A DNA stretch of 64,000 nt, taken from positions 64,001 to 128,000 of IMG/VR virus record IMGVR_UViG_3300022689_000474. One strand, given 5' to 3'. Below the pieces are notes generated by a model. The model saw nothing but the letters and a program-made list of their open reading frames with translations. It searched no databases and was not told where the DNA came from. Shown one piece after another: positions 43,724 through 61,459 of this stretch. The stretch is from a virus. Made by a program: the position numbers and the translations under genes. Every line of letters begins with the position of its first letter. Position 1 is the first letter of the stretch.

Positions 43724-44280
43724 ATTCTCTTCTTATTTTCCTCTTGACCCCTTATATTTATCCAATTGATAGCTTGAATCTGATGTGATAATAAATCTCT
43801 TATATTCTTAGATACTTCATAATATTCTGATTCAACTCTTTTATAAATAACAGGGGTTAATTTATTAATTCTTAATCCTTTACATATCCAAGTATCTATA
43901 GTTACTAATGTACTCCTTTCAGGGTATAAAATGTTTAAATAAAAAGCTTTTACTTTATTTCCACTTATTATTCTTATATCTTTATTTCTTAATAACTTTA
44001 AAGCTTTATATTTATTTCTATTATAAGTACATATCTTATATCTATCTATATCCTTCTCCCTATATCCCTTTATTAGATTTAATGTATCTATCTTATTTCT
44101 TTCCCATCGATTCCTAGGACTTAATATTGCTAATACTCCTACTACTATATCTAACTTTATTTTTGTCCTTTTAGATATCTCTACACAATAATCTCTAGCT
44201 TCTCTATACCATCCTTTTCCTTCTTCTATCATTGAAGGAGAAGCTGATTCTAATAACTCTATAATACTTTCTCTATACAC
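43720..44280 (-). CDS. Conserved phage protein with a putative HhH / DNA-glycosylase-like fold (DUF7178-like)
   Basis: GKGWYREA, VLAILSPRNRWERN, GNKVKAFYLNI, VTIDTW and QAINW. GTG start with an AGAGGA Shine-Dalgarno. Confidence 0.55.
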   Translation of the reverse strand: MYRESIIELLESASPSMIEEGKGWYREARDYCVEISKRTKIKLDIVVGVLAILSPRNRWERNKIDTLNLIKGYREKDIDRYKICTYNRNKYKALKLLRNKDIRIISGNKVKAFYLNILYPERSTLVTIDTWICKGLRINKLTPVIYKRVESEYYEVSKNIRDLLSHQIQAINWINIRGQEENKKRI

Positions 44281-44296
44281 TTTATTCTTTTTCCTC

Positions 44297-44308
44297 TATT
44301 TATAAATA
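44297..44308. promoter_or_regulatory. Palindromic TATTTATAAATA (TATAAATA on both strands)
   Basis: Intergenic, about 17 nt upstream of the minus-strand start at 44280. Confidence 0.3.
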
Positions 44309-44358
44309 TCTAAAAGTGTATTATTTAAAAAGTAGATATTTCTATATCTCTATATAAC

Positions 44359-44979
44359 TTAATTAAGTATTTTTCTTATATAACTTCTTCTATGTTGTTG
44401 ATGTGGACCGTAAGATTGAAGAGCCATTCGATGTTTATAAGTACCATAACCCTTATTACATTTAAGATCATATTTGTTTAAGTCTTCATCTTTATTAACC
44501 ATATCAATTATTAAATTATCTCTATATGTTTTAGCTAAAATACTAGCTGCTCCTATTATTGGTTCTTTTAAATCTCCTTTTATAATACATTCATAATTGA
44601 ATGTATTCAGAGATAAACTAAAAGAATTGATACCATCTAGATATATCTTCTCTATATTACTTAGTTCAGAAGTAAAGTCTTCTTTCAGTTTTATCATTCC
44701 TCTATAAATTCCATTGAATTGAGCTTGATAAATACCTTTAGAATCTATTTCATCTTTAGTAACGTGTACAAAAAAATAATCATCTAATAACTCAATTATC
44801 TCAGGGTATAACTTCTCTCTTTTCTTACTACTTATTTTTTTACTATCAGTTACTCCTATATCTATCATTTCTTTATCTATTAAACTTTTCTCTTTTGATG
44901 ATAGTGCAAAACATAAAACCATATCATAAAATAAACTTCCTTTACCTACTTCATCTATACCTACAATATATCTCTTCAT
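44359..44979 (-). CDS. rnhB: Ribonuclease HII
   Basis: GIDEVGKG, DSKK, LDG, IKGD...IGAASILAK..RD, NKGYGT..H and HRRSY. Confidence 0.96.
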   Translation of the reverse strand: MKRYIVGIDEVGKGSLFYDMVLCFALSSKEKSLIDKEMIDIGVTDSKKISSKKREKLYPEIIELLDDYFFVHVTKDEIDSKGIYQAQFNGIYRGMIKLKEDFTSELSNIEKIYLDGINSFSLSLNTFNYECIIKGDLKEPIIGAASILAKTYRDNLIIDMVNKDEDLNKYDLKCNKGYGTYKHRMALQSYGPHQQHRRSYIRKILN

Positions 44980-45004: not shown

Positions 45005-48000
45005 ATGTACTTTTCTAATATATCAAATAAGAATCAATTATTCTCTCGTAGTACTTTATTTAACTCTTCTATGACTTCTGAGTTGAATAAAAAGTTCTCT
45101 TTTGATATTTATAATAATAAAAGTAATTATATTCCATCTGATTATATTAATAATTTAAGTACAGATATAGATCCTATAAATAGTCTTATAAATGAATCTT
45201 CTCTTCAATCTAGACTCTCTGGTAATACTAATCAATATTCTATACCTCCATCTAGAAAGTTATTAAATACTTCTTTTAGTCTTCCTCTTGAGAATAGAGC
45301 CCCTTATTTAGGTGGTATATCTTCTAGTCTATATAACTCTTTAACTCAATCAAATTTAGGTAATATTGATACTTCTAATATTACTCTTACACCTTCTAAT
45401 TATTCTTATGTTAAGTCTAATGTTGATTCTATAGATACTTCTAATATCGGTTTTAATAACTCATCAAAATATTCTTTCATAAAGTCAGATACATCTTCCA
45501 TAGATACTTCTGGTATTAGTTTTAATACCCCTTCTAAACCTCATTCCTCTTCTATTAATGAGGCTATTAGATCTAATATTTCAGGAAGTTCTATAGTTAT
45601 TCCCTCAAGTACTTATTTAGATCCTGTCTCTAGAAATCAAGCTTATAGAGATACACTTAAACCTCAAAGTGGTTATATTGATAGTACAACTAAAGGTTTT
45701 AATCAACATTTTAGAGATTTAATGAAGCCGAAGTATGTAGCTTTAAGAGAAGAAAGTATTCGGGAATATGTTGATACTATCAAACCACAAAGTGGTTATA
45801 TGGAAGATGTAAGTAAAGATATACATTTAAGATATAAAGATAATAGTAAAAGGGGTATCTCAAGTATCAATAATAAAGACTTTTTAGAATATTTACCTTC
45901 TGAGGATATTAATTTTAGGAGTGCTAATAATCTAGAAGGGGTTAAAGAATATAATCAATTAAATTTCAAATCTAAAACTAAAACTTCTGTCTCTTCATTA
46001 GCAAAGAAAGTTGAATTAACTCAAGCAGGTTTGGATAATTATCAAAGAGTCATTCAGTTAGTATTCGACTTTGAGAATAGAAGTACAGAAGGAGTCAGAC
46101 TTCCTCAATTAGCTTCTATGAGGGAAAAAAGATATGAAATGTTGGGGGCTGGTGCTTTATACGACCCAAGAAAGAATGTAGTTGCAGTAGATGACTCTAT
46201 TATAGGGCAATTAAATAGAGGTAAACTTACAAAAGAATCTTTCGGCACTTTAGCTCATGAATTAGCACATTCTTATCAGAACCACTTTGGTAATACATGG
46301 AAAAAACAAAGAGCCTTTGAGAATAGAGTTTATTCTGCTGATATAGATGAAGTTAAACCAGGTAATTTAATTCAAGATAAATATACCAAAAGGGTAGTAA
46401 AGAGATCATTAGAATCTATAGCTCTGACTAAACAAAATATGCCGGAAGGTCTTACAAAAGAAAGAAGAGAAAGTGCTATCAGAAGATCTACTGCTAATGA
46501 GTTAGATGCATATTCATTAGAGGATAGAATTACTCGGAGTGTTGATGTAGACCGAATATTTGATCCTGATTATAAACTTACTAAAGTTGGTTATCGTACT
46601 GAAGATACTATTAGAAAAGTAAGAGCTACAAGAGAATTTAATAAAAAATTACTTACAGGTACTATAGGTACAACAGCAGTAGTAGGTTTAGGTGCTATTG
46701 CTTATTCATTATTTAGAAATAGAGAGGAGTCAAAATCTGAAGAGAGTAATAATGATAAATTAGTGTTAGGAAGTATTGTAGGGTCTTCTTTCTTATTAGG
46801 AAGTATTAGACAGACTACATTTGGCCCTTATAAAACTTCAGAACATTTAGGAGAATCTTCAATTGCTCAAAGAAATTTAAAGAAAGCTACTAAAAAGGTA
46901 TTTGATTATCTAGGGGTAGACTTTGATCTTTCTCAAACTCCTACAATTGCTGCTTTTGGACCTGATATTCCAAAAGGATTAGGAGGTGCTTATGTAGCAA
47001 AGTATAATGAATTGGTATTAAATCAAGAAATATATGGTGAACTAGTAAGTGGAAAAATCTCTAGAAATTCATTCTCCCTGTTGGCTCATGAATTAGTTCA
47101 TGCTTATCAAGCTAATGTAGGTGGTAATATTCAGAAAAAACTTCTTTCTGATGAAGAAGTAAATCTATTACCTAAAAAAATTCTTGATATGGCAAAGAAG
47201 TCTGCAGCAGTTCAACCGTATGAATCTAAAGAATATTGGGAATCTTTTAGAAAAGAAGTAGAAGCTTATGACGTTCAATTTCAAATATTAGCCAAAAAAA
47301 AGAAATATATAAGTCCTAAATATAGGCAGACACGAATTAATCCCGTTTCTACATCTATTGATCAACCTACTTCTCCTAAACCACCCTTTCAGCCCTCTTT
47401 ACCTCCTACTAAGCCTAAGCCCCAATTACTTCTACCTCCGGCCAAGTCTATTAGTCCTAGATCTGTTAATCAATCTATTCTACCACCCGGATTAACCGTC
47501 CCATCTCCTATTTCTCCTTACCCTAGTCCTCCTGGTAAGTCTAAGCCCCAATTGCTTCTCCCTCCTGCTAAGCCTATTAGTCCTAGATCTATTAGTCAAT
47601 CCATTTTACCCCCCGGATTAACTATTCCATCTCCTATTTCTCCTTCACCCAGTCCCTCTCCTAAGTCTAAGCCCCAATTACTTCTACCTCCTGCTAAAGT
47701 TATAAGTCCTAGACCTGTTAGTCAATCTCTTCTACCCCCCGGATTAACGGTTCCATCTCCCATTTCTCCTCCCCCTAGTCCTTCCTCTAGTAGGTTGGGG
47801 AGTCAGTTACTTTTACCTCCTGCTAAAGCTATAAGTCCTAGACCTGTTAGTCAGTCCATTATACCTCCGGGACTAACTATCTCCTCTCCTATTTCTCCTG
47901 AAATTAGTTCTTCTCCAAGCCCCCCTTTTAGTCCAAGACTTAATAATCAACCACTCTTACCTCCTGGGAAATCACTAGAAGAGGTAAATATGATAAAAGG

Positions 48001-51000
48001 TATTGGTCTTAAGAACATTATTCAGGGACAAAATCTTAGATCTTTAAGAAATACTTCTTTAGGAGCTATTGGGATAGGAATAGGTTTGGCTATAGGTATA
48101 AATCAATTTATTTATTCATCAAATAGAGAAATAAGTTCTAGAGAATTTAAAGAGATAGACGATTCCCTTGATAGAAGGATGAGAAGTGTTCGGATTAATA
48201 GAGAGCAAGAAAGAATGGAAATAGAGGCTGAAGAAAGGGTAAATAAAATGATTGAAAATAGTATTACAGAAGAGGATAAAAGATTTATAGAAGAGCATTC
48301 TAACCAACTAAAAGAAAGACTACAATCATTAAATAGTGCTAGAGTCTCACAAGACAATACAGTCAACAGTACGTCTAGTAGTTCTAATGAACTTCCTTCA
48401 ATTCTTCCAGAAAGAACAATATTTGGGAGTATTTCACCACCATTAGTTTTATCTAATGAAATTGATCTATTAAATGAACCTTTAGACTCAAGGACTCAAA
48501 CTAAAGTTGCTTCTGGATCTCAACAGTATGTTCAAAGACAAGAAGCATTAGCTCGAGGAGAGTTGTATACAGATGAAGGTGCATCTATTTCTATCGGGAA
48601 ATGGACTCGTGAACCTATGACTAATAGATCTAATGAAGAATGGAAATCTCTTTTAAAGAAAGAATCAGACTTTGTTAGGTCATTAAATAGAGATGATCAA
48701 ATAAATGTATTATTGGGTGATAGTCTAACTCAATGGTTTAGACCGTATCAACTTCCTCAAAAAGAAGATACAACTTGGTTAAATCAAGGAATATCCGGTC
48801 AAAATATACAACAGATTGATCAAAGGATTGATATCCTTAAATCAATGAAAGGAGATAAAGTATTCATAATGGCCGGTATTAATGATTTAAGACAAGGAAG
48901 ATCTGATAAAGAAATACTAGAAAGATACTCTTCTATGCTTGATAATGTCAAGAAGAGTGATGTTGCTGATGAAGTTGTAGTACAATCTATACTTCCCACA
49001 AGATTAGATAATTTACCTACTAATAGGATTAAGTCACTTAACTCTCAAATTAAAGCTATGGCGGAGAAGAGAGGAATGACTTATATTGATCTCCTCCCCC
49101 ATTTCTTAAATGAAGAAGGTCGGTTAAAAAAAGAATATACTACTGATGGTATACATCTTTCTAGAAAAGGATATGACACTTGGTCTAAATTAATGTCTCA
49201 ACATCTAAATGGAAAGGGAGAAGAACAAGATATTAATATTTTGGGGAATCAAGAGAAATTAGAAAGGAACACTAATCAGGCTGGAGAAAGTATTATACCT
49301 CCATCTAGTTCAGTAGCTAGACAGGCAGCTAAAAATAATAAAGATAAAGAACAGACTCTTTCTTCAAGTGCTGGAGGTGGTGGTAGTAAACCACCTGGTA
49401 CTCCTAGAACTTCTACTCCTCCTCCTCCTGAAGAACCTGATCCTCGAAAGAAAGCAGGACTATATACTAATATGGATGATCAGGAAAAGAAAAGTTGGGT
49501 GGATAGATTAAAGTCTGCTGTAGGGTTTATGAGAGATGAAAAAGTTGAAGATGTTATTAAAGTAGTAGGTGTTACTGCTGGTATTACTGCTGGTATGTTA
49601 GGTACTATTAAAGGTGTAGAGGTTCTATTCTCTAATGTGAATAGAATCTTTAGTTCTTTGAGAAGTTCTATAGCTCTCTCTACTTCATCTAGTTCCTCCC
49701 CTGGTCAATCAGTTACTTCCCCTCAGCCTACCTCTTCTACTAGAACTCCAGGTCAACCAGCTGTCCCATCCCAATCCTCTTCTCCTACTACACCTGTATC
49801 TCAATCTACCCCTTCTACTAGAACTCCAGGTCAACCAACTGTCCCCTCCCAACCCACTTCTCCTACTACACCTAGGGCTCCAGGTCAACCAGCTGTCCCA
49901 TCCCAATCCTCTTCTCCTACTACAACTGCATCTCAATCTACCCCTTCTACTAGAACTCCCGGTCAACTAGTTATCCCATCTCAACCTTCTTCTCCTACTA
50001 GGGCTCCAGGTCAACCAGTTAGTCCACCTCAACCAAGAGGGCCTGCCCCTTCTTCTTCAGTAGGGAGTAACTTACCAAATAGATCTATAAGTAGTGGACC
50101 GCCTTCATCTCCATTATCAAGTACTCCTTCAGTAAGAACTAGAGGTAAAGGAGGTATGGGATTTATGTTAGGTGCAGGTCTTGTATCTTTAGGAGTAATG
50201 GGAGTTATTGGAGGAATAGCTGGTTATATGGTCTTTTCTCCTAGTGAAGATAGAACATCAGGAGAAAGGAGAGATGATTTCTATTCCAGTCCAGAAGTAG
50301 AACAAAGTAGAAAAGAAAGAGAAATAAGAGAAAGACAGTTAATAGAACAAGAGAAAAGAATTACGGGGAGACCAGATAGAAGTATAGATAGAGATACTAG
50401 TTTATTATTAAGGAATAGTAGAGAAAATAGGGACGGAAGTTCTGTAAGAAGGCAATTATCTTATAGAGAATATATGGCATTACAGACGGGAAGAAGTGAA
50501 GAACATTCATTACAACCTGAAATTAGTAGACCTTCTTCTTTATCTTTAGATGAACATTTAGCTATACAAAACCAAGGCCAAATCCGTAGAAGAGTTAGTA
50601 GAGATATAGATCAATCTAGAGGTATTAGAGCATCTGATTTATCATTTGAAGAGTTTTTAGAGATACAATCTGAAAGACCAGAGATAGAAAGAAGAAGAGA
50701 ACGTATAAATAGGGGGGATAGTAGATCTAGAACTCTATCATTAGGAGAATATCTATCTATGGGTGAAGAAAGAAGAGTATCTATAGGGAGTGATGATAAT
50801 AGATCTAGAGCTAGATATCTAGCCATCATGGAAAGTAGTGAATCTTCTATAGATGATAGGTATAGAAGAGCTAATAGATTAATAATAAATAGACCTGATA
50901 GGGAGTTAACGACTCCACTATTACCTCAAGGAAGTCATGAACCCCGTCCAGAAAAACACATTGACATGAGTTATGACGAGGAATATTTAGGAATATGGGA

Positions 51001-54000
51001 ATTTGGTTCTAAAACTAGAGGTCTATTAAGTCAAATACAGAAAGGTACATTATATGGAGGGTTTTATCAAAGGCCCTCAAGTCCTTATGGAAATATATAT
51101 ATTGATTTAGCTAGTAGAGAAGTTCCTACTATAATGCCTCCTACTAGTGGTACTGGATATCTATATGAAAATAGGAAAAGATATATGGAAAAGTTAAGAG
51201 AAAGTGGAGTTCCAGTAGTACAGGTTGGTGACTTCCACGCTAAAGCATTTATAGGTACTAATATTAAAGATGAAGAAATAGCTATAGTACTAACAGGTAA
51301 TTTAACTAGATCTGCTTTAGAGTCTGGTGTTCCGGATGAGGCAATTATGACTAATGAATCTATAAAAGATAGATTTTTAAGAACTTTTTTCAATCAACGT
51401 CCAAAGTTTTATCAAAGTAATATTGGTTTAGTTGTAAAAGATTCAGAAAAGATTGGTCAACTTAAAGAAATCTTATTTAATATACAGACAAAGGGGGTAT
51501 CTTACTCAACAGAAGATTTTATAGTAGGGGGAGCTATGGGAAATAGTAGAGAGAGAATAGTAGATTTTATACTACAAAAGTCTAAAACTGGAGATGATAT
51601 TAGTATTACTTCACCATATATTGATGACCCAGAAATAGTAAGAGCTTTAGTTCAAGCTAAACAACAATCTGGTGTTACTATTAGACTAATAACTTCTAAA
51701 GAAGGTTCTGGAATAAGAGCTTATTCACAAGCCATTTCAACACTTCAAGCAAGTGGTATAGAAGTATATGCTCCAAAGGGAACTCAGTCTTATTTACCTC
51801 ATGAGAAGATGATACTTATAGGTAATGATTATATAGTAGGTTCTCATAACTTTACTTCTAAGGCTTCTGATAGACAAATAGAAATAAGTCTAATGGGTAA
51901 TGACCCTAGAATAGCTTCTTTAATGCAAGCTGATTTTATCAGACAAATAGAAGAAGGTTATGTATCTCTTAAAGAAGGTTCGGGAGCTAGAAGATCTATG
52001 ATGTTAGGTACCAGTCCTTTACTTAGTGGTTTATACGCAGGTAGTGATAAAGCTGGTACTCTTTTATTAGACCCTAATATGGGGGCTTCTTATTTCTATG
52101 GGAGAGCTTTATATAATAATCAACAAAGACAGGCTAGAGCTCATCATAGAGTTATAGATCAAGAGACTTCAGGTGTAGCTACAGCTATGTATAAAGCTGC
52201 ATATCTAGCTAAATTGAATGAAGGGGAATTAATTCCACAACATAGTGATTTAGATAGAATACCAGGAATAGTACAACAGTATGATAGAGAGTTATATACA
52301 CCTGGTATAGGTGCAATATTAAATGAAAAAGTCTTTATGAGATTAGGTCTAGGAAGATTATATAAAGATGAGCTAGGATTCTTACCATCAGCGATGGGAG
52401 CTTTAGGTTCAGTCTTAGATAAAACTTATTTATATTTAAATCCCAATGCTAACTTTCCAGGAATTACGCATTATTTTAAGGAAATGGATATTAAAGATTC
52501 TTCATATAGAGATAGACCTGCACCTGTAGGATTATTTGAGGCGGGGTTAAGTGAATTAGCTTTCTTAGGACAAGCATCAGCTCAAGGTATATTATTCTAT
52601 ATGATTGTAGGAGAACCTATATCTATGTTCTTATCAGAGACTATAAAGAATGATGTAGAAAGAGTTATTTCTAATAGTCTTAGTACAGATTTAAATCAAT
52701 TCTATTCAACTTCATCTAGACTTCATAGGAGGGCAAACTTATCAATGGCTAGTGCTTTTAAAAGTCCCCTATCAGCTAGGATGGAAGTATTATCTACGAT
52801 GGATAATTTAAGGAAGATAGATGCTGAATACTTTGGTGCTGAGAATCCGGGCCTTAGTATTTATCATTTCTCTTCTATGTATTTGAGAGGGAGAAGTGGA
52901 ATATTATTGAATGAAGTTATGAAACCATTCTTAATGGAAATAGTTAATCCATATGATCCTATGGATGTACAAAGTAATAGAGGTTTTTCTAATGTTATAG
53001 ATAGATTTATAGAAGAAGTTAGTAGACCTGTAGGATTAGCAGCTATAAGTCCTTCTGATCCTCATTTAGATTCAATAAAAATAACTAGAACAGATGTACA
53101 AAGGGGATTATATAAACAAGGGTTTTCTAGGAATCAAGTACAAAGTATGAAGATAGATGAAATAATAGGATATAAATATGCTAGAGAACAATTTGTTAAT
53201 AAAGCGAGAGATTTCTTAGATACATCTACATTTAGATCTTCTTTAATATCAAATAGAGTAAATAGCTTCAAGACTTTTATTGATAGATTTGGAAATTATC
53301 AAGATTTTAATACTAAACAATTAGCTAATCTATTTAGTCAATTAGAAATAATAGAGAATAGTGTAGATCCTACAGATGTAGATGTAATAGAAGATATACA
53401 TATGATAAGAAGGAGATTGATGCAAATAGGTGCTCAGATAGAAGATCCAGCTAAAAGATTATCTAGAAATAGGAAAGCTGATATCAGTCTTACTAAAGAA
53501 GGAAGGTTAATAGGTGATATCGACTTTGAAATTACTAATGAAGGAATAGATAGATCTTCATCTATAGCTAGAAGATTACAAGATATATTAGATGAGATAC
53601 CTTTAAATCCTCTTAACTGGAGAATGTTTAATAAGTATCGTGCTATTAGAGGTATAACGGGTCAAGACTTAGAAAGTGAAGGTTATTTAAGAATAACGAC
53701 TACAGGACAACAAGATACTGGAAGAGTTATTCCAAGAGTAAGAACTGTAGGAGAATTATTTTCTTTCACTGATTTAACTCAAGTAATGAGGGAGATATTA
53801 TTTGGAAGAGGAGGTTTTTCTCAACATTTAGCCAGAGCGGAAGTATTTAGTGATAGAGAAAGATTAATAAGATTAAATAGAGTTTCTCAAGTAAGTAACT
53901 TTGAAGATCTAACCTTTAAAGATGCTAGTAGTATTTGGTTTGATAGAAAGATAGGTTATGCAGGTAAGATGGCTGTAGATAAAATTCATACTGTATGGAA

Positions 54001-57000
54001 TGCTACTATTGGTTTTGCTTATGAATCTTCTAAAAGAGTTATAGATAAATATAGATATTTACAAGGTTCATTATTGGCACCTTTTGGAATAGGTAGAGAA
54101 AAAGGATTATTAAGGGGTAGTAAGGCCTTAAAGGATATGGAATATTACTTAATGAATATGGAAGATGAAACTACAGGTCTTAAAGCTATAAGTTGGGGTG
54201 ATGATTTAGATGAAATAAAAGAAGCAATAAAGTCTTTAGAACAAGAAGCAATAGAAGAGTTTAGAAGTTTAAGTAATACTGAAAGATTGACTAAATATGG
54301 TTCTTTAAATGAATCAGAGTATATAGATAGATATGTTAGTGAAAATATACAGAGAGCTACTAGTAGTATAGATCCAACTGCTAGAAGATTGAATTGGTTA
54401 GATGAAAATGTTGTAAAAAGTCTTGCAGAAGCTGAAGAAGTTAGAAGTAGATTTATGAATAATCCCGAGAGACCTTTTGACTTTGTAGAAATACAAGAAA
54501 GGTTAAGAGCAGAGACTTTAGGTTTATTTAGAATGGGGACTGTTAAAGATGAAGCTTTAAAGAATAGAATGGTTCGTATGAGTCCGGGTATAGGAAGAGA
54601 TGTAACTGGAAAGATGACTAAAGGTACTTTAACTACTACTGCTTTATCTATATCAGTATTATCATCTTTAATATTATCTGATTTATTCCAAAGTACTTCT
54701 GGAGTTAGTCTATTTACTCAATTGGGTTTCTCTCTATTTAGTGGAGGTGGTCCTATAGGAAGATTAATGGGTAATGAACAAGGAGAATTGGGTATCAATA
54801 CACATTTTGAAGGAGATAGATTATTTCCTGATATACCTGGTCTAGGTAGAGTTGGAACTACATTATTAACTACAGCAGGTACACTATATGCTGCTCATGT
54901 AATAGGTACATCTGCTTTAAGGGCTGAAGCTATAAATTATAGTTTCACGACTGATTTCATGTTTCAACAATTAAAGTCGGAGACTGGAACTGATATTGTT
55001 TTATCAGCAGCTAGAGGATCAAATGAAGCGGATATCTCATTAAGACAAAAAGTATTAAGTGGAGAAATAAAGAAAGGAAGGGAGTTATCAGATTTTATAG
55101 ATAACAATCCTACTAGGACTATTAGTATGAGAATGAAGTATAAAGATACATTTGAAGCTTCACTGTCTCTAATGAAAAAGGGAGATATGTTAAATATCCG
55201 TTCTATGAGATTTAGAGGCAATACATGGTTAAATACTATGATTGCCTATGCAGGCTTATCAATTGGTGGTAAAGCTTTAGTCTCTTCTACTTCTTCTTTA
55301 CTCAATCATATGAGGGAATCTCAAGGGAGTCTCGATCCTTTAGCTTTTGGTGTTGCTGGTGCATTGATTGGATCTAAAATGACTAGAAGTTTTGGTGGAG
55401 GTCTTGCCGGTCTTTTAATAGGTGGATTAGGTTCTTATGTTATGAATAAGATGGGTGTTAAAGTATTTAATCTTGGAGATCCTGGTTCGGTTGTAGATAA
55501 TCAAGGGGCTACTCTATTAGGAGAGTTATCCGACTTTAGGAATTCTGTAATGGCCAACTTTGATAAAAGTTCTAGAATTGAATTGATGGCAGCTTTAGTA
55601 TCTCAAGGAATAGAATCACCTTATGGTTTATTTAAACAAGAAGCTTCAGGTACTGATGTTAAAGTAGTAGCTAAACAGGTTACTTCTCCTATAATACAGT
55701 TCTTTATGGCAAAAAGAACTAAGGGACAATATACTGATTATTCAGGAAAGGTAGTTGATCCAGGTATAACTACATATTCTTTAGGTATACAAGGACCGCC
55801 TATAACAGGGATGTCAGTTGGTATCCAATTACCATTTAAGATATTAAAAGATAGACCGGAGAATAATAGTTCTGGATATATGAATAGAGGCAGTAGAAAT
55901 TTTAATCTTGTATATAATGATGAAACAGATATTTTAGATTATTTATATGGAGTAGGAATGATAGCTACATCTGCTCAGATGTTAAGTTATTCATTAAGAA
56001 CTATTGGTGCTATAGGTTCTCCTTTAACTCCATCAGCTGGTAGTACTTTAGGACAATATAGAGAAACTGCCGATAATTTATTTACAGAATCAGGTAAAAG
56101 GATAGGTAAATTTGGTACCGCAGTAGAAGATGTTGGAATGATATTACCTAATACTATTCATAGAGTAGCTCAATATATCTTCTCTTCTGATTATGATGTC
56201 TATAATCAAATAGAACTAAGAATGAAAAGGAGATATGAGATGTCTAAAGGTATAGAGGGTGGAGATCTTACATCTGTTAGATCTTTTAATAGATCTAGAA
56301 TGTTAATTAGATATACATCTAAAGCTGCTTTTGGGGCTTTTGTATTAAATTTTGGGGCTGGTCTAGTACAAGATGATGATAAATTTCAAGAGAATTCTTT
56401 AGTACTAAATATGAGTGGTGTTGGTTTGGGTGTGGCTGCTGGAGTAGGTCAAGATTATCTAGCTGGTGTATCTAGAGCTATGAGAGTATCTAATGCTGGT
56501 AGAGCTCTACGTATGACTAGATTACGTAAAAATTTACTTCCTTATGCTTTATCTGGACTTGTGGGATTTCATCTTACTGATGATAGATTTGGGGTTTTTA
56601 CTGGGATGAGTAATGAATATGTTAAACAACAAAAACATGATGAATATTATTCTTATCATAGGGAAGCAGTTATAGGTACTTATGCTGTAGCTATGGGTAC
56701 ATTAGGTGCTACATTTGGAAGAATGGGTATGGATTCAGGTCAAGTATTAGAAGAATATTCAAGAGCCCTTAATTCTTTAAATGAATTAGAAGATATACAA
56801 CAGGCAAATACAGCAGGAGGGGGAGTATTAAGAAGAGTAAGAAGAGCATATCAAGCTCATCGAGTAGAAGAATTAGAAAAAGAAGCTCAACAGATAGTAG
56901 ATTACTTCAGACATAGAAGTAAACAAATAGAAGAGACATTTGATTTAGTATCTTCAGCTTATCCTAATGTAGCCCCTGAGACATTAAGAGAATTCCATAT

Positions 57001-60000
57001 TAATAAGGCAAGACAGATTATAGAAGATACGGGGTCTATGTCAGCTAGGGATATAATGAATAGACAGGATGAAGCTACAGCATTAATACAACATGTAAAT
57101 AGATCTAGGGGTGCGTATATTGATGCAAGGTTATCTAGTAGAAGATTTTCAGGTAGATTAATGAAAGGTATGATAGGAGTTCCAATAGCTACACATATAA
57201 TAGGATCTTTATTACATTCTATTAACCCTGAAGTTTTTAATGCTAATAAGTTCTATGATTGGTTGGAGAGTAGAGGTACTAATTTTGATGCTAATGCTCC
57301 ATTTATGAAAACAAGAAATGTTATAGCAGATGCTATTAGAGCTATAACATTTACTGATAGATCAATAGACTCTGGTATTAGTTTAGATCAAACTTTTAGG
57401 AGTGCAGCAGCTTCAGGAGGTTTTTATCAACCTGTATCTCATGAAAAGTTATTAATACGACAGACTGGATATGCTAGGTCAATGACCAAGTTATTCAGAG
57501 ACCTATCTGAGATAGCTATTCTTGATGATGTAAATCCATTTATAAGTGGTCCTTTAGGTGCAGGTGCTTCTATTAGGAGAGGAGATAGAGGTACAGTATT
57601 AACACCTTATATACAAATACAAACATCTGGAAGTGATATATCAACAGCTTCATACTCTATGAGTTCAAGATTCTTCTTTAGAAATGTATTACAAGGGAAT
57701 AATGATTTAGTATTTGAGATACAAAATGCTATGAGGATGAAGAATGAATTTATGAAGAAAGGTTTAGATCCTTCAGTAGTAATGAGAAGAACAGCTTTAA
57801 ATATATTAATGGCTACTTCATCATTACAACCTAGAAAGAAACCAAGAAGAGCTTCTAGATTATCAGACAGTCAATTATCAAGTCTAGCTTCGGATACTTT
57901 ATTAATGGCATCATTAAAGGAAAGGATGGCAATACAGAAACATAGTAATTATCAACCAGTAGAGTCAATAGTGACTCAAATGTTAATAGAACAAATGATG
58001 CCAACTCATAAGTATTTAGATAATATGTTAATGAATGTATTATCTCCAGAGAATGCTAAGAAGTTAGGTATAGGTGTAGGTAAGAATTTGGCAGCATATA
58101 TGATGGGAGATCCTTATTACTTATTATCTAGAAAGATAAATATGATGGGTATAAAATTCTTTGGAGATCAACCTGGTGGGGTAAGAGGTAGAGATATATC
58201 TAGTCAAGCTAGAGATTTTCCTGATTTATTTGGAGAGTATAGTTCTAAACATTTAGAGACATATACTATGGAAAATAGTAAGAGATCTCCTTTCTTAGAA
58301 TCATTAAGTGATAATAGTAGTCGTATATTTGGAGCTCTACCAGCACCTGTTAGTTTAATGTTAGGTTTGACTCTAGGTCTTAGTATTACTTCTAGACTTA
58401 TTGATTTTGCCAATGTTATTAAAGGAGGACATGAAATAAGTGAAGGTCAAAAGATGTTAAGAGAAATATCTAGTGAAAGATGGTTCACTAATGCTCCTGA
58501 ATCAGATAAGTTAAGGAATGTATGGGTCAGTATGAATTATCCCCAAATAGGAAGTTCAGAGCCTCTTGTAGCTGGAGCAAAAACATTACCAATCTTAAGT
58601 AAAGGATCTTTTCACTTCTTATTAAATCCTGCCTCTCATGATTCTTATAAAGTATCTCAATCTTTAAGAACTGGTTTATCAGAAGTACAGAAACAATTAG
58701 ATGAAGCTAGATTAAATTTTAGAGGTCAATCAGTAAATATATTTGAATATTTACAGATAAATAAAATAAAAGAATTAGAGGCCATATTAGGTGGAGTACC
58801 TAATCAAAGTCATATACAAGCTATGACAGTATATGATAATTCAGGTAATAGGGTATATGGTATTGATACAAATAAAGCTTGGATGGATAACTTAAATGAT
58901 GCTAGAGATTTACTTATGACTTCATCCAAGGGTATGGAACCTGAAACTGCTAGAAGGATGAAAGCTGTAATATCTGCTATGGAGACTGAGATTAAATCTC
59001 GTCATATAACTAATTTAAGTGATACTATTTTGGATCAAGTAACAGAACACTTTACTAAAGAAATAGATCATTATATTGATCAATATGTAGATTCTTTAAT
59101 GAATAATAAGGTTCAGATAAGTAGAAATGATTATAGAAGCATGTTGGAAAAAGCGAATATATCTGATATAGAAAATAGATTAGATAAATATTTTCCTTCT
59201 GCTCCTGGAGGTGGACCTATTAAATCAACTGTTGATGTTCCTGTAGCTGCATTTTTTATACCTAATGCCTCACCTGAAGAGATATTAGGAGTTAAAACAG
59301 AACAAGATTTATACAAATTAATTGAGGCGAGAGGAGAAGCTACTGGTCAGTTAGATGCTATATCTACAACTGATAGTTCAGGTGTTAGAGTAGCAGATAT
59401 GAGAACTAAACTTAAGTCGGCTGCAGCTAATTCTATTAGAGAAGAAGTAGCTAGAGAGTTAAAATTATTTAGTAATGACCCTAAGAAATTATCTAGACTC
59501 AGTTCTGGTCTCACAGGATCTATAAAACATATTGCTTCTTCAGTAACTAATAAAATATTCTTAAATGCATTAGGAGGGAGGACAGGAGAAGTTGAGAAGT
59601 CATTCTTTTCAGTCTTACGTCATCATTGGGGAGGTTTAGGAGTTACTCCTTCAGCAGATACTAAAAGAAGTCTAATAAATAATCTTAGGTCATTCATGTC
59701 TAGGATGACTAAAGGTTCAGCCCCTTATATTGCAGAAGATGAAATAGAAGTGGCTAAATTCCATTCATCAGTTTCTGTAGAGAGAGCTAAAAGAAAAGCT
59801 TTATCTTCTGTTGAATTACCAGAAGAAATGGCAGAATTAGAAGCGAGGAAAGCAGCAGGAGATCCAACAGCTTTAGATATAGCTAGAAAAACAGAAGAAA
59901 TAAATTTAAGGAAAGCTCCTTTATTAACTAAAGCAAGTAGAGGTCTTCAAAGTTTCTGGGATGTGGCTACATCTATTTTTGATATTATTGAAGCTATAGA

Positions 60001-61459
60001 TATATTTTCATCTTTCTCACGATTAAGTAGTGCTAGTAGAAGTAATATGACTAGAGCTCAAAAGAAATTAATTGCATCTGAAGTAGGTACTACAATTAAT
60101 AACTTTACTCAAGGTATGGCATTTATGGTTGCTATGAATACTATAAATATGGGTATTCAAGCTAGTGCTTCTGCTATAGGTTGGAAAGCTCTAGCTCCCA
60201 TTTTATTAATAGCAGGTGTTATAGCAGTAGTAGGTGGAGTCACTTATATGAAAGATCAGGAGAATAGGGAGAGTTGGAGTGGATTCTGGAAAGGGGTAAG
60301 TGAATTCTGGGGAGATACTATCTTCAATTATACAGAGAAGGCTGAGAAATGGGGAGGAGGTGGTAGAAAGACAGATGCAATACTTATGGGAACAGGTGGT
60401 GCTTTAGGAGGTTTAGCTTTATCTGCATCTGCATTAAGTATGGCTCCAGGTACATTAATGGGTGTATTTGGAGGAGTATCATTATTAGCTGCTGGTCAAT
60501 TTTTATTAGCAGGTTTAGCTATAGGTGCTGGTTTAGGAGTAGCAGCAGCATTAATAGCTCCAGAAGCTACATCAAATCTATTTGATAATTTAGTAAATAG
60601 TTTATCAGATATAACTATAGGAGGATTTCCTATATTTGGAATGTTTTTAACGAAACCAGGTAGTGGTTTATATATGAAAGGATACTCAGAACCTTCTTTA
60701 GGTGTAAGTAGAACCACTCCATTTATGGTAGGAGGTGTAGAACAAGTTATAGCGGCAGATTATAGAAGATATCTACTAGCTGCCAAAGATATAACGGGTG
60801 GAGATGCAGCAGGTCTATTCTTAAGTACTACTATATATGGATCATTACCAACAAGAGGTAATGATGTAGTATCAAGATACGGAAAAACAATGAGTATAAG
60901 ACCTGGAGGTGTAGTAGATCCAGTAATAAGGAGAGAAATACAATTAAGAGGTCAACACTTTAATCAAAGTGTTATAGGAAGACAAATGTGGGTGGCAATG
61001 TTAAGTAATGCTACTAATTATAGAGCTATCAAACAGGCTGATTATAGAGATTCTATAAGGTCAGCTACTTTAAGTATGGAGGCAATGAAAGAAGATAATT
61101 CTCCAGAAGTAGAAAGTAAGAACTTAAAATATAAAAACAAATTAAGAAAGAGGAATCCAGAAATTAGAGGTGAAATTATAGGTCAATATGTAGATGATGT
61201 AGGTAAAGCTATAGATAGAGCGGAGAAACAAAAAGAAGAACCACTATTATTAAGTTTTGATAAAGAGTCATTAAATAATACGAATGTATTATCAAAGGAC
61301 TATATAGTAAATGGATTGGATAGAAAGAGTACAAATAGTAATATTCCAGTAGTCAGTTCTACAACTCAAGGACATATAGTAAGTAAAGTACCTAATCCAG
61401 AAGGGAGTTTAAACGATACAATATTAGTAAGTCCTTATAGTGAATATGATAATGTCTGA
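45005..61459 (+). CDS. Giant (5484 aa) cysteine-free multi-enzyme, multi-TM protein; probable injected/ejection or tape-measure-like polyvalent protein
   Basis: Two HExxH zincins, an SGNH hydrolase, two HxK PLD motifs, Pro-rich linkers and many Gly/Ala-rich hydrophobic helices. No Cys found on reading the translation. Confidence 0.75.
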   Translation: MYFSNISNKNQLFSRSTLFNSSMTSELNKKFSFDIYNNKSNYIPSDYINNLSTDIDPINSLINESSLQSRLSGNTNQYSIPPSRKLLNTSFSLPLENRAPYLGGISSSLYNSLTQSNLGNIDTSNITLTPSNYSYVKSNVDSIDTSNIGFNNSSKYSFIKSDTSSIDTSGISFNTPSKPHSSSINEAIRSNISGSSIVIPSSTYLDPVSRNQAYRDTLKPQSGYIDSTTKGFNQHFRDLMKPKYVALREESIREYVDTIKPQSGYMEDVSKDIHLRYKDNSKRGISSINNKDFLEYLPSEDINFRSANNLEGVKEYNQLNFKSKTKTSVSSLAKKVELTQAGLDNYQRVIQLVFDFENRSTEGVRLPQLASMREKRYEMLGAGALYDPRKNVVAVDDSIIGQLNRGKLTKESFGTLAHELAHSYQNHFGNTWKKQRAFENRVYSADIDEVKPGNLIQDKYTKRVVKRSLESIALTKQNMPEGLTKERRESAIRRSTANELDAYSLEDRITRSVDVDRIFDPDYKLTKVGYRTEDTIRKVRATREFNKKLLTGTIGTTAVVGLGAIAYSLFRNREESKSEESNNDKLVLGSIVGSSFLLGSIRQTTFGPYKTSEHLGESSIAQRNLKKATKKVFDYLGVDFDLSQTPTIAAFGPDIPKGLGGAYVAKYNELVLNQEIYGELVSGKISRNSFSLLAHELVHAYQANVGGNIQKKLLSDEEVNLLPKKILDMAKKSAAVQPYESKEYWESFRKEVEAYDVQFQILAKKKKYISPKYRQTRINPVSTSIDQPTSPKPPFQPSLPPTKPKPQLLLPPAKSISPRSVNQSILPPGLTVPSPISPYPSPPGKSKPQLLLPPAKPISPRSISQSILPPGLTIPSPISPSPSPSPKSKPQLLLPPAKVISPRPVSQSLLPPGLTVPSPISPPPSPSSSRLGSQLLLPPAKAISPRPVSQSIIPPGLTISSPISPEISSSPSPPFSPRLNNQPLLPPGKSLEEVNMIKGIGLKNIIQGQNLRSLRNTSLGAIGIGIGLAIGINQFIYSSNREISSREFKEIDDSLDRRMRSVRINREQERMEIEAEERVNKMIENSITEEDKRFIEEHSNQLKERLQSLNSARVSQDNTVNSTSSSSNELPSILPERTIFGSISPPLVLSNEIDLLNEPLDSRTQTKVASGSQQYVQRQEALARGELYTDEGASISIGKWTREPMTNRSNEEWKSLLKKESDFVRSLNRDDQINVLLGDSLTQWFRPYQLPQKEDTTWLNQGISGQNIQQIDQRIDILKSMKGDKVFIMAGINDLRQGRSDKEILERYSSMLDNVKKSDVADEVVVQSILPTRLDNLPTNRIKSLNSQIKAMAEKRGMTYIDLLPHFLNEEGRLKKEYTTDGIHLSRKGYDTWSKLMSQHLNGKGEEQDINILGNQEKLERNTNQAGESIIPPSSSVARQAAKNNKDKEQTLSSSAGGGGSKPPGTPRTSTPPPPEEPDPRKKAGLYTNMDDQEKKSWVDRLKSAVGFMRDEKVEDVIKVVGVTAGITAGMLGTIKGVEVLFSNVNRIFSSLRSSIALSTSSSSSPGQSVTSPQPTSSTRTPGQPAVPSQSSSPTTPVSQSTPSTRTPGQPTVPSQPTSPTTPRAPGQPAVPSQSSSPTTTASQSTPSTRTPGQLVIPSQPSSPTRAPGQPVSPPQPRGPAPSSSVGSNLPNRSISSGPPSSPLSSTPSVRTRGKGGMGFMLGAGLVSLGVMGVIGGIAGYMVFSPSEDRTSGERRDDFYSSPEVEQSRKEREIRERQLIEQEKRITGRPDRSIDRDTSLLLRNSRENRDGSSVRRQLSYREYMALQTGRSEEHSLQPEISRPSSLSLDEHLAIQNQGQIRRRVSRDIDQSRGIRASDLSFEEFLEIQSERPEIERRRERINRGDSRSRTLSLGEYLSMGEERRVSIGSDDNRSRARYLAIMESSESSIDDRYRRANRLIINRPDRELTTPLLPQGSHEPRPEKHIDMSYDEEYLGIWEFGSKTRGLLSQIQKGTLYGGFYQRPSSPYGNIYIDLASREVPTIMPPTSGTGYLYENRKRYMEKLRESGVPVVQVGDFHAKAFIGTNIKDEEIAIVLTGNLTRSALESGVPDEAIMTNESIKDRFLRTFFNQRPKFYQSNIGLVVKDSEKIGQLKEILFNIQTKGVSYSTEDFIVGGAMGNSRERIVDFILQKSKTGDDISITSPYIDDPEIVRALVQAKQQSGVTIRLITSKEGSGIRAYSQAISTLQASGIEVYAPKGTQSYLPHEKMILIGNDYIVGSHNFTSKASDRQIEISLMGNDPRIASLMQADFIRQIEEGYVSLKEGSGARRSMMLGTSPLLSGLYAGSDKAGTLLLDPNMGASYFYGRALYNNQQRQARAHHRVIDQETSGVATAMYKAAYLAKLNEGELIPQHSDLDRIPGIVQQYDRELYTPGIGAILNEKVFMRLGLGRLYKDELGFLPSAMGALGSVLDKTYLYLNPNANFPGITHYFKEMDIKDSSYRDRPAPVGLFEAGLSELAFLGQASAQGILFYMIVGEPISMFLSETIKNDVERVISNSLSTDLNQFYSTSSRLHRRANLSMASAFKSPLSARMEVLSTMDNLRKIDAEYFGAENPGLSIYHFSSMYLRGRSGILLNEVMKPFLMEIVNPYDPMDVQSNRGFSNVIDRFIEEVSRPVGLAAISPSDPHLDSIKITRTDVQRGLYKQGFSRNQVQSMKIDEIIGYKYAREQFVNKARDFLDTSTFRSSLISNRVNSFKTFIDRFGNYQDFNTKQLANLFSQLEIIENSVDPTDVDVIEDIHMIRRRLMQIGAQIEDPAKRLSRNRKADISLTKEGRLIGDIDFEITNEGIDRSSSIARRLQDILDEIPLNPLNWRMFNKYRAIRGITGQDLESEGYLRITTTGQQDTGRVIPRVRTVGELFSFTDLTQVMREILFGRGGFSQHLARAEVFSDRERLIRLNRVSQVSNFEDLTFKDASSIWFDRKIGYAGKMAVDKIHTVWNATIGFAYESSKRVIDKYRYLQGSLLAPFGIGREKGLLRGSKALKDMEYYLMNMEDETTGLKAISWGDDLDEIKEAIKSLEQEAIEEFRSLSNTERLTKYGSLNESEYIDRYVSENIQRATSSIDPTARRLNWLDENVVKSLAEAEEVRSRFMNNPERPFDFVEIQERLRAETLGLFRMGTVKDEALKNRMVRMSPGIGRDVTGKMTKGTLTTTALSISVLSSLILSDLFQSTSGVSLFTQLGFSLFSGGGPIGRLMGNEQGELGINTHFEGDRLFPDIPGLGRVGTTLLTTAGTLYAAHVIGTSALRAEAINYSFTTDFMFQQLKSETGTDIVLSAARGSNEADISLRQKVLSGEIKKGRELSDFIDNNPTRTISMRMKYKDTFEASLSLMKKGDMLNIRSMRFRGNTWLNTMIAYAGLSIGGKALVSSTSSLLNHMRESQGSLDPLAFGVAGALIGSKMTRSFGGGLAGLLIGGLGSYVMNKMGVKVFNLGDPGSVVDNQGATLLGELSDFRNSVMANFDKSSRIELMAALVSQGIESPYGLFKQEASGTDVKVVAKQVTSPIIQFFMAKRTKGQYTDYSGKVVDPGITTYSLGIQGPPITGMSVGIQLPFKILKDRPENNSSGYMNRGSRNFNLVYNDETDILDYLYGVGMIATSAQMLSYSLRTIGAIGSPLTPSAGSTLGQYRETADNLFTESGKRIGKFGTAVEDVGMILPNTIHRVAQYIFSSDYDVYNQIELRMKRRYEMSKGIEGGDLTSVRSFNRSRMLIRYTSKAAFGAFVLNFGAGLVQDDDKFQENSLVLNMSGVGLGVAAGVGQDYLAGVSRAMRVSNAGRALRMTRLRKNLLPYALSGLVGFHLTDDRFGVFTGMSNEYVKQQKHDEYYSYHREAVIGTYAVAMGTLGATFGRMGMDSGQVLEEYSRALNSLNELEDIQQANTAGGGVLRRVRRAYQAHRVEELEKEAQQIVDYFRHRSKQIEETFDLVSSAYPNVAPETLREFHINKARQIIEDTGSMSARDIMNRQDEATALIQHVNRSRGAYIDARLSSRRFSGRLMKGMIGVPIATHIIGSLLHSINPEVFNANKFYDWLESRGTNFDANAPFMKTRNVIADAIRAITFTDRSIDSGISLDQTFRSAAASGGFYQPVSHEKLLIRQTGYARSMTKLFRDLSEIAILDDVNPFISGPLGAGASIRRGDRGTVLTPYIQIQTSGSDISTASYSMSSRFFFRNVLQGNNDLVFEIQNAMRMKNEFMKKGLDPSVVMRRTALNILMATSSLQPRKKPRRASRLSDSQLSSLASDTLLMASLKERMAIQKHSNYQPVESIVTQMLIEQMMPTHKYLDNMLMNVLSPENAKKLGIGVGKNLAAYMMGDPYYLLSRKINMMGIKFFGDQPGGVRGRDISSQARDFPDLFGEYSSKHLETYTMENSKRSPFLESLSDNSSRIFGALPAPVSLMLGLTLGLSITSRLIDFANVIKGGHEISEGQKMLREISSERWFTNAPESDKLRNVWVSMNYPQIGSSEPLVAGAKTLPILSKGSFHFLLNPASHDSYKVSQSLRTGLSEVQKQLDEARLNFRGQSVNIFEYLQINKIKELEAILGGVPNQSHIQAMTVYDNSGNRVYGIDTNKAWMDNLNDARDLLMTSSKGMEPETARRMKAVISAMETEIKSRHITNLSDTILDQVTEHFTKEIDHYIDQYVDSLMNNKVQISRNDYRSMLEKANISDIENRLDKYFPSAPGGGPIKSTVDVPVAAFFIPNASPEEILGVKTEQDLYKLIEARGEATGQLDAISTTDSSGVRVADMRTKLKSAAANSIREEVARELKLFSNDPKKLSRLSSGLTGSIKHIASSVTNKIFLNALGGRTGEVEKSFFSVLRHHWGGLGVTPSADTKRSLINNLRSFMSRMTKGSAPYIAEDEIEVAKFHSSVSVERAKRKALSSVELPEEMAELEARKAAGDPTALDIARKTEEINLRKAPLLTKASRGLQSFWDVATSIFDIIEAIDIFSSFSRLSSASRSNMTRAQKKLIASEVGTTINNFTQGMAFMVAMNTINMGIQASASAIGWKALAPILLIAGVIAVVGGVTYMKDQENRESWSGFWKGVSEFWGDTIFNYTEKAEKWGGGGRKTDAILMGTGGALGGLALSASALSMAPGTLMGVFGGVSLLAAGQFLLAGLAIGAGLGVAAALIAPEATSNLFDNLVNSLSDITIGGFPIFGMFLTKPGSGLYMKGYSEPSLGVSRTTPFMVGGVEQVIAADYRRYLLAAKDITGGDAAGLFLSTTIYGSLPTRGNDVVSRYGKTMSIRPGGVVDPVIRREIQLRGQHFNQSVIGRQMWVAMLSNATNYRAIKQADYRDSIRSATLSMEAMKEDNSPEVESKNLKYKNKLRKRNPEIRGEIIGQYVDDVGKAIDRAEKQKEEPLLLSFDKESLNNTNVLSKDYIVNGLDRKSTNSNIPVVSSTTQGHIVSKVPNPEGSLNDTILVSPYSEYDNV
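46040..47300 (+). other. Tandem zincin metalloprotease domains within the giant protein
   Basis: TLAHELAHSYQ (His at 46256) with downstream NELDAY, and LLAHELVHAYQ (His at 47087) with downstream KEVEAY. The flanking sequences align with each other. Confidence 0.85.
47411..47970 (+). repeat. Four ~126-bp (42-aa) Pro-rich repeats, KPQLLLPPAK.ISPR.V.QS.LPPGLT.PSPISP
   Basis: Units start at 47411, 47537, 47663 and 47792, plus a partial fifth. Confidence 0.93.
48509..49207 (+). other. SGNH/GDSL hydrolase domain within the giant protein
   Basis: Block I GDSLT (48716), block II NQGISG, block III GIND and block V DGIH (49145). All catalytic residues are present. Confidence 0.93.
49697..50040 (+). 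repeat. Ser/Thr/Pro repeats, about six R(T/A)PGQP.VPSQ.SSPTT units
   Basis: Recurrent ACTCCAGGTCAACCA / GCTCCAGGTCAACCA cores. Confidence 0.9.
51000..51960 (+). other. Phospholipase D-superfamily domain pair within the giant protein
   Basis: FHAKAFIG...TGNLT (His at 51236); ITSPYIDD...GVTIRLI; HEKMILIG...GSHNFT...E (His at 51800). Confidence 0.85.

Follow-up and report, generated by a model that had tools for sequence, protein, structure and literature searches.

Why would a contractile-tailed phage keep a protein of several thousand residues that contains no cysteine (Cys) at all? This question is raised by one gene of the virus record IMGVR_UViG_3300022689_000474, located within the window analysed here, namely, the whole stretch of 64,000 nucleotides at bases 64001-128000 of that 152-kb IMG/VR record. 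Genes for a portal, a major capsid protein, a 1,021-aa (amino acids) tail sheath, a lysozyme-M23 protein and baseplate proteins were recognised in the record, and since sheath, baseplate and other virion genes are present the phage is a contractile-tailed myovirus. The gene in question, a single open reading frame (ORF) of 5,484 codons closed by one terminal stop (the giant ORF, Table 1), had been taken in an initial annotation for a protein that is packaged and ejected, inserts into host membranes and delivers enzymes. By sequence comparison, the giant ORF is the largest and most elaborate known member of the family of gp120 from phage Ma-LMM01, or phrog_29513, and we judge it about equally probable that its product is, or is not, a virion-internal pilot protein that is ejected at infection.

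Cysteine avoidance, family and operon position

Counting gave 0 Cys in 5,484 residues, as the initial annotation had asserted, an outcome with a probability of about 1e-23 at the genome's Cys content of 0.96% (average over the other ORFs of at least 370 aa in the same genome). Read in its other two frames, this DNA contains 37 and 215 TGY codons. The neighbouring genes, which had been described as Cys-rich, do encode 22 Cys in a 1,114-aa ORF, 19 in the terminase large subunit (TerL) and 11, or 3.4%, in a 323-aa ORF; among the ORFs of at least 600 aa in this genome, just two are Cys-free, the giant ORF and another giant with 4,838 aa.

If separate genes had been fused by an artefact of assembly or annotation, the most likely breakpoints would be the repeat-rich linkers of the giant ORF, which are places where assemblies may err. 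However, one frame stays open over 16.4 kb, against 590 and 765 stops in the other two, and P0002, a relative of 5,089 aa from an independent data set, has the same order of modules, namely, zincin, zincin, SGNH and core. Moreover, complete homologous ORFs of 2.8-3.6 kaa occur in the finished genomes of cultured phages, and many are closed in IMG/VR contigs as well. Because P0002 keeps the module order and closed homologous ORFs exist, we find a fusion scarcely credible. The annotated start is supported by the first 100 aa, which are 62% identical between the giant ORF and P0002, and the stop overlaps the start of a downstream RuvC-like gene (61440). Promoter and terminator scans around the start and the end of the giant ORF returned chance-level scores.

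Membership in the gp120 family was established from the first domain of the core, which matches phrog_29513 with E 6e-15 and, by tblastn, Ma-LMM01 with E 2e-20 across 95% of aa 2340-2700. Ma-LMM01 gp120 itself (2,898 aa, annotated as hypothetical, 0 Cys) aligns with the giant ORF in three collinear blastp blocks. Among named phages, those most closely related are Ma-LMM01, MaMV-DC, -DH01, -CH and -DL of Microcystis (genus Fukuivirus) and the Microcoleus phage My-WqHQDG, whose protein WOL31340.1 also has 0 Cys; the annotation is hypothetical in every member of the family. Exhaustive profile searching with HMMER yielded 56 cluster representatives, taken from a 50%-identity clustering and nearly all of 2,700-5,100 aa, and these, together with the giant ORF, hold only 10 Cys in 182,670 residues (57 sequences). 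Word-indexed search returned just two long relatives, P0002, 73% identical in the core, and P0003 (4,727 aa), 30% identical. None of 185,579 prokaryote genomes searched yielded a relative, which favours an ejected phage protein. Judging from where its sequences occur, the family belongs to Fukuivirus-like contractile-tailed cyanophages and their metagenomic relatives.

A comparison suggested by the initial annotation, whether homologs keep the helical core while swapping N-terminal enzymes, was carried out; the core is retained and the N-terminal enzymes vary. The homologs of the five Microcystis phages and WOL31340.1 share with the giant ORF the core blocks, the C-terminal pair of hydrophobic segments, the absence of Cys and the position after TerL, but the Microcystis-phage members, with 2,898-2,904 aa, are devoid of its N-terminal array of about 2,000 aa (zincin-like modules, SGNH domain and repeat linkers). 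Neither a phospholipase D (PLD) nor a staphylococcal nuclease (SNase) domain was matched in Ma-LMM01 gp120 at the Pfam or phmmer level. The zincin-like modules and the SGNH domain were found only in the giant ORF and P0002 among family members. Thus, as read from the alignments, the unit conserved in the family consists of a nuclease head, of either PLD or SNase type, a helical core of 2,400-3,100 aa with strongly conserved polar motifs, and the C-terminal hydrophobic pair. This modularity of the N-terminal heads, with PLD or SNase and with added zincins and SGNH, also speaks in favour of an ejected protein.

The premise behind the earlier proposal, that giant ejection proteins such as the virion RNA polymerase (vRNAP) of phage N4 lack Cys, proved sound. 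First, 0 Cys were counted in N4 gp50 vRNAP (3,500 aa), gp51 and gp52, and in T7 gp15 and gp16. Second, counts of 2-12 were obtained for polymerases, portals and tail proteins from both phages. Third, the only Cys-free proteins of at least 600 aa in these two phages are the ejection proteins N4 gp50 and gp51 and T7 gp15 and gp16. In N4, gp50, gp51 and gp52 are the ejection proteins, and gp50 is a loosely folded giant chain, comparable to beads on a string, that is expelled and then refolds (PMC13434306). The family-wide avoidance of Cys, a trait shared with the ejection proteins of N4 and T7, gives indirect support to ejection of the giant ORF product.

A second line of support, likewise indirect, is genomic, since the family has a fixed place after TerL in the virion operon and, in Ma-LMM01, middle-class expression. 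The comparison covered 26 IMG/VR loci (of which L017 and L027 have no upstream DNA), Ma-LMM01 and the Microcoleus phage. Where upstream DNA is present, the giant gene follows TerL on the same strand within about 6.5 kb, and within less than about 1.5 kb in all loci but L018; beyond the giant gene come an exonuclease gene and often also a RuvC-like gene. The giant gene closes the virion operon in the relatives compared. In a time course of Ma-LMM01 infection, gp120 and gp080 are of the middle class, together with the terminase, and are expressed from 3 h, with essentially nil signal at the two earliest time points. As a consequence, any role at entry would need protein made beforehand.

The same data could be accommodated by a non-virion protein, made in the middle or late phase and anchored in host membranes from inside the cell, where its nuclease and hydrolase modules would serve takeover, a platform for replication or assembly, or the preparation of lysis. 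Expression from 3 h onward in Ma-LMM01, the downstream neighbours in DNA metabolism (RuvC-like resolvase and exonuclease), the nuclease head and the conserved hydrophobic segments all agree with this. We regard it as unlikely, since it leaves unexplained the Cys avoidance that, among ORFs of at least 600 aa, only the other giant shares in this genome, and since the gene is transcribed with the virion and packaging operon, at whose end it stands in all relatives. Likewise, the nearest solved relatives of the SGNH domain are of the carbohydrate O-acetylesterase or lysophospholipase L1 type, and carbohydrate O-acetylesterases act outside the cytoplasm.

The second giant of the genome (4,838 aa, 0 Cys; G000:C1:16006-30522, outside the window, locus L008) carries at aa 3522 the sequence GDFDGD, the metal-binding motif of two-barrel RNA polymerases, as well as a PLD-like HPK...GSFN site at aa 423. 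Its homologs occur in the same phages as the gp120 family, and the one in Ma-LMM01, gp080 (3,562 aa), has 1 Cys and keeps LGDFDGD. No paralogy was detected between the core of the giant ORF and the second giant, which on its motifs is a candidate virion RNA polymerase. That this other giant is also Cys-free and has GDFDGD, with gp080 likewise near-Cys-free, lends indirect support to ejection of the giant ORF product. The clade of the second giant is reported to rely on host sigma-70 promoters.

Nuclease head, added enzymes and helical core

The anatomy initially assigned to the giant ORF was right overall, with its layout of domains, repeats and hydrophobic segments recovered here (Table 1), and the differences concern the identity of some enzymes. 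In the PLD module, aa 2194-2313 match PLDc_2 (PF13091, Nuc/Zucchini-like branch) with E 2e-21 and 76.6 bits against a cut-off of 27, and both HAK 2078 and HEK 2266 are accompanied by a downstream G-x-N. At this same site, 60-100 aa before the core, about 17 family representatives have PLDc_2 and about 22 have SNase. Because two unrelated nuclease folds share the position, it would be nuclease activity, not phospholipase activity, that is selected at the head, and the PLD head is more likely a nuclease than a phospholipase. Of the phospholipase or nuclease function previously proposed for a PLD pair, the pair itself was confirmed, while a phospholipase became less likely in view of the SNase substitution.

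Table 1. Position of the giant ORF, its modules and its conserved upstream neighbour in the window.
Feature	Position	Strand	Basis
TerL with intein-like insertions, conserved upstream neighbour	38285..42169	+	sequence comparison
Giant ORF, 5,484 aa, 607 kDa, pI 9.2, Cys 0	45005..61459	+	single open frame
Ser/Asn-rich low-complexity N-terminus, aa 1-330; S 19%, N 11.5%	45005..45994	+	composition
HExxH module 1, aa 330-520, HELAH at 418, putative zincin-like	45992..46564	+	below family thresholds
Between the HExxH modules, two Gly-rich segments of moderate hydrophobicity, ~aa 550-606	46652..46822	+	sequence; below Kyte-Doolittle (KD) 1.6
HExxH module 2, aa 620-760, HELVH at 695, paralog of module 1	46862..47284	+	motif and paralogy
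Pro-rich tandem repeats, 126-nt unit, 3.9 copies	47402..47899	+	tandem repeat
Hydrophobic Gly-rich segment, aa 1018-1037	48056..48115	+	hydropathy
SGNH/GDSL hydrolase, aa 1237-1391, catalytic blocks intact	48713..49177	+	PF13472
Hydrophobic Gly-rich segment, aa 1517-1535	49553..49609	+	hydropathy
Ser/Thr/Pro tandem-repeat linker	49728..50034	+	tandem repeat
Strongly hydrophobic Gly-rich segment, aa 1716-1745	50150..50239	+	hydropathy
Arg/Ser/Glu-rich repeat region, aa 1746-2030, R 16.5%	50240..51094	+	composition
PLD-superfamily module, two HKD motifs (HAK 2078, HEK 2266), at the family's nuclease-head position	51092..51979	+	PF13091, motifs
Family-defining core, aa 2340-5484, mostly alpha-helical	52022..61456	+	without Pfam, PDB or fold match
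Core N-domain, aa 2345-2690, most widely conserved block; GRLYKDE and NPY motifs	52037..53074	+	matches phrog_29513, Ma-LMM01 gp120
Gly-rich hydrophobic patch GGGLAG (aa 3464)	55394..55441	+	four-homolog conservation
TPY.Q.Q..G.DIST..YS motif block, aa 4200-4219, highly conserved	57602..57660	+	alignment
C-terminal hydrophobic pair, both segments long and rich in Gly/Ala, aa 5055-5084 and 5150-5188	60167..60568	+	hydropathy, family comparison

The SGNH domain corresponds to the esterase of the initial annotation, and that assignment was borne out. PF13472 matches it with E 5e-23 and 82.9 bits against a cut-off of 32.9, and catalytic blocks I, III and V are all present, namely, GDS 1238, GIND 1291 and DGIH 1381. 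Its closest solved relatives are PDB 7pzg and 6njc (E ~5e-20). The repeats rich in Pro and in Ser/Thr/Pro, which had also been noted, were both recovered as tandem repeats.

The two modules with HExxH motifs, previously read as proteases, are paralogous and can be considered putative, unverified, zincin-like domains. Their HELAH and HELVH motifs are indeed present, but no zincin family passed its threshold; Pfam gave four matches on the two modules (eCIS_core/DUF4157, SprT-like, DUF6782 and DUF6055), all below the curated cut-off, with E 0.01-0.08. The eCIS_core match on module 2 covers only the motif helix (aa 688-704, E 0.017, 15.8 bits against a cut-off of 22). No PDB sequence matched the modules, and a word-indexed search of shorter proteins found no homologs of the zincin region outside P0002. 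A language-model match to LPD23/SprT, with a score of 0.85, was taken as a lead only.

Enzymes of these kinds might also be displayed on an external fibre or whisker and act, as depolymerases do, on sheath, mucilage and extracellular DNA. Three points agree with this: the virion operon includes the gene, SGNH esterases are known from phage tailspikes, and nucleases of the SNase and Nuc types are typically extracellular or periplasmic. Nevertheless, we find this placement very improbable; long conserved hydrophobic segments are ill-suited to an exposed fibre, the core is helical and globular, and the giant ORF is devoid of the beta-helix, collagen and Ig repeats that are present in the real fibre genes of the window. 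Extracellular exposure would, in addition, provide no motive for Cys avoidance.

Hydrophobic segments were scored by hydropathy with a KD threshold of 1.6. The two helices claimed to follow the first zincin correspond to a Gly-rich hydrophobic stretch (~aa 553-606), which exists but remains below this threshold; P0002 has one above-threshold segment, aa 511-529, right after its first zincin. Within the core, a further Gly-rich segment was scored at aa 4441-4459, and the hydrophobic clusters previously marked at 55330-55440 and 60180-60560 are the GGGLAG patch and the C-terminal pair, respectively. In four long homologs, GGGLAG and four of the five following residues (I, G and flanking positions) are invariant, and the C-terminal pair keeps its position in nearly all family members, with its segments ending some 400 and 290 aa short of the C-terminus. 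Such positional conservation of the hydrophobic segments again favours an ejected protein.

For the core itself, an AlphaFold2 (AF2) model of aa 2340-3539, based on a 25-sequence alignment, shows compact all-helical domains with a mean predicted local distance difference test (pLDDT) of 71 and a predicted template modelling score (pTM) of 0.56; its best region spans model residues 170-530, and its helices are mostly of 10-50 residues. The prediction of compact helical domains, rather than of a single long coil, is a further point consistent with ejection. The model of aa 4100-5299 was poor (pLDDT 53.5), and in the AF2 prediction the TPY.Q.Q..G.DIST..YS block forms low-confidence strands. Sequence searches gave no relatives of the core outside the family: Pfam and PHROG matched nothing on the C-terminal 2,984 aa, the core profile against PDB sequences gave chance-level rows only, the best score of an ESM Atlas feature search with aa 2340-4379 was an uninformative 0.76, and a word-indexed search for shorter core homologs returned none. 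Fold searches with the aa 2340-3539 model gave no significant row either, with a best Foldseek E of 0.05 against PDB, a best VIA-align Z of 6.1 to a generic four-helix bundle, a best E of 1.6e-3 at a template modelling (TM) score of 0.11 in BFVD, and TM of at most 0.17 in an Atlas shape search. For the aa 4100-5299 model, the best VIA rows (Z 7.5-8.1) align its hydrophobic segment with generic helical hairpins of transmembrane type; these would agree with a hairpin in the membrane but were not counted as evidence. The core is thus match-free in the fold searches, which does not by itself prove a novel fold.

These features bear on a different location, the lumen of the tail tube, where a tape-measure protein would set the length of the tail and would be expelled as an enzyme-bearing membrane channel. 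A location of this type is a live alternative because the phage is a contractile-tailed myovirus. Such a tail needs a tape measure, but PF10145 and PF20155 have no match anywhere in the genome, and the ORFs of the tail module match tape-measure PHROGs only through lysozyme/M23 domains. In a comparison of 13 large ORFs of the virion module, helix propensity was highest in the giant ORF, which, like typical tape measures, lacks Cys and carries Gly-rich hydrophobic segments towards its C-terminal end; tape measures also bear occasional enzymes and are expelled into the envelope. The weak BFVD rows are mostly tape-measure or minor-tail proteins, yet with TM of 0.06-0.12 they are not meaningful.

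Nonetheless, we consider a tape measure quite unlikely for three reasons. First, the giant gene follows TerL instead of standing between the tube or chaperone genes and those of the baseplate. Second, the homolog of MaMV-DH01, with about 2,899 aa at 1.5 Å per residue, would give a length of about 435 nm, against a reported tail of 260 nm (PMC9927357). Third, the short helices and compact domains of the AF2 model are not long coils, and a range of 2,700-5,500 aa within one clade, together with globular enzymes at the N-terminus, suits a ruler poorly. No tape-measure PHROG matched the giant ORF. The tail module encodes a 692-aa protein (G000:C1:60716-62794, outside the window; L010 6716-8791) with lysozyme and M23 domains, whose C-terminal part matches a tape-measure PHROG; a canonical tape-measure gene was not detected in the genome.

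A proposed packaged and ejected protein compared with known systems

Packaging, ejection, membrane insertion and all substrates are what we infer for the giant ORF product, as follows. The protein would be made alongside the virion proteins and packed into the particle as a loosely folded, beads-on-a-string chain, for which the capsid interior is the most likely place; at infection, it would leave by way of the tail. Its lack of Cys would follow from selection against disulfide cross-links, both while the chain is stored and while it passes through. Once at the host, the conserved Gly/Ala-rich hydrophobic segments might insert in the membrane, extending or anchoring the entry conduit, while the enzyme modules would act at the entry site, with the nuclease head (PLD here, SNase elsewhere) working on nucleic acid. 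In the lineage of the giant ORF, the SGNH O-acetylesterase and the two zincin-like modules could attack envelope polymers. The second Cys-free giant of the same genome, with its GDFDGD polymerase motif, is a possible partner.

Several observations weigh against this proposal. Literature searches returned neither virion proteomics nor a structure for any family member, and no similarity in sequence or fold was found to T7 gp15 or gp16, N4 gp51 or any solved ejection protein, with hhalign probabilities below 1% for the core against T7 gp16 and N4 gp51. Ejection proteins this large that reside in the capsid are known chiefly from short-tailed phages. The major capsid protein of N4 also has 0 Cys, so the trait is not exclusive to ejected proteins, and the hydrophobic segments are Gly/Ala-rich in composition. 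In P0002, the stretch that aligns with the PLD module (aa ~1780-1960) has HYN instead of HxK and no PLD match, and its nuclease head seems degenerate by this comparison; loss of the HxK lysine would make the nuclease dispensable in some lineages. Finally, host transcript levels are reportedly unchanged during Ma-LMM01 infection (PMC5780444), which argues against wholesale degradation of host DNA. Destruction of host DNA as the main function of the nuclease was rejected on the same report.

When compared with known systems, the giant ORF resembles ejection proteins and polyvalent proteins in logic, by analogy, and not in sequence. Like N4 gp50, gp51 and gp52 and T7 gp14, gp15 and gp16, it is large, Cys-free and helical, has hydrophobic segments of the kind that are membrane-active in those proteins, and is encoded in the virion module; some ejection proteins carry an enzyme as well, such as the transglycosylase of T7 gp16 and the polymerase of N4 gp50. 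It differs from them in being 1.5-4 times larger, in belonging to a contractile-tailed phage and in having no detectable sequence or fold relation to them.

Large polyvalent proteins of phages and conjugative elements, reportedly defined by Iyer and co-workers in 2017, have unrelated enzyme domains (zincin-like, esterase, nuclease) on one chain that vary between relatives. The giant ORF likewise has several unrelated enzymatic domains that vary among its relatives. However, neither a conserved core of 3,100 aa nor hydrophobic segments kept in position, both present in the giant ORF, belong to the features of that class, and no MuF, other head-targeting or LPD domain was found on it at Pfam E <=0.1. 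A third likeness is to the eCIS-associated zincin-like domain DUF4157 (eCIS_core), in that an HELxHxxQ-type motif lies within an N-terminal module of the giant ORF, whose product would be loaded into a contractile particle; as described above, the match of the giant ORF to this family is sub-threshold and restricted to the motif helix.

It is tempting to speculate, as a possibility that we hold to be less probable than not, that this clade of contractile-tailed cyanophages, the cultured Ma-LMM01 among them, carries an N4-like ejection system of two Cys-free giants, namely, a nuclease-headed conduit that inserts in the membrane and a GDFDGD virion RNA polymerase. In such a system, the 3,000-aa core of the conduit would be of an unseen fold and its N-terminus would be an evolvable slot for enzymes that degrade the envelope or counter defence. 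Should both giants prove to be packaged and ejected, the Ma-LMM01-type phages that infect bloom-forming cyanobacteria would enter their hosts by a route undescribed for contractile-tailed phages, and two of their largest hypothetical genes would gain a role. The family can be regarded as a natural experiment, where the core is kept, the heads are swapped (PLD, SNase, added SGNH and zincin) and Cys is nearly absent over more than 180,000 residues. This pattern could act as a simple sequence signature for ejected proteins in uncultured phages.

Terminase and other neighbouring genes

TerL of this phage has 1,294 aa, compared with 592 aa in Ma-LMM01. The difference includes two insertions, each starting with Cys and ending in HN followed by S or T, of which one matches Intein_splicing and LAGLIDADG; by these marks they look like two inteins within one TerL. 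The TerL genes of the relatives L019 and L037 are interrupted as well.

Between the TerL block and the giant gene, two genes lie on the opposite strand (window 43720-44979, minus), encoding 186 aa (phrog_3842) and 206 aa (phrog_19422); Ma-LMM01 has no opposite-strand genes at the matching position. The start of the second of these is separated by 25 bp from the ATG of the giant ORF, with no Shine-Dalgarno sequence visible. Directly upstream of TerL, a Cys-free ORF of 339 aa (window 37253-38272) was found, with homologs 0-3 kb upstream of TerL in the IMG/VR loci L015, L016, L019 and L024 and in the Microcoleus phage (L001). Further upstream, a 2,610-aa ORF (window 26975-34807) has all of its 15 Cys within the first 1,337 residues and none in the last 1,273, and this C-terminal half may be another expelled or cargo-like part.

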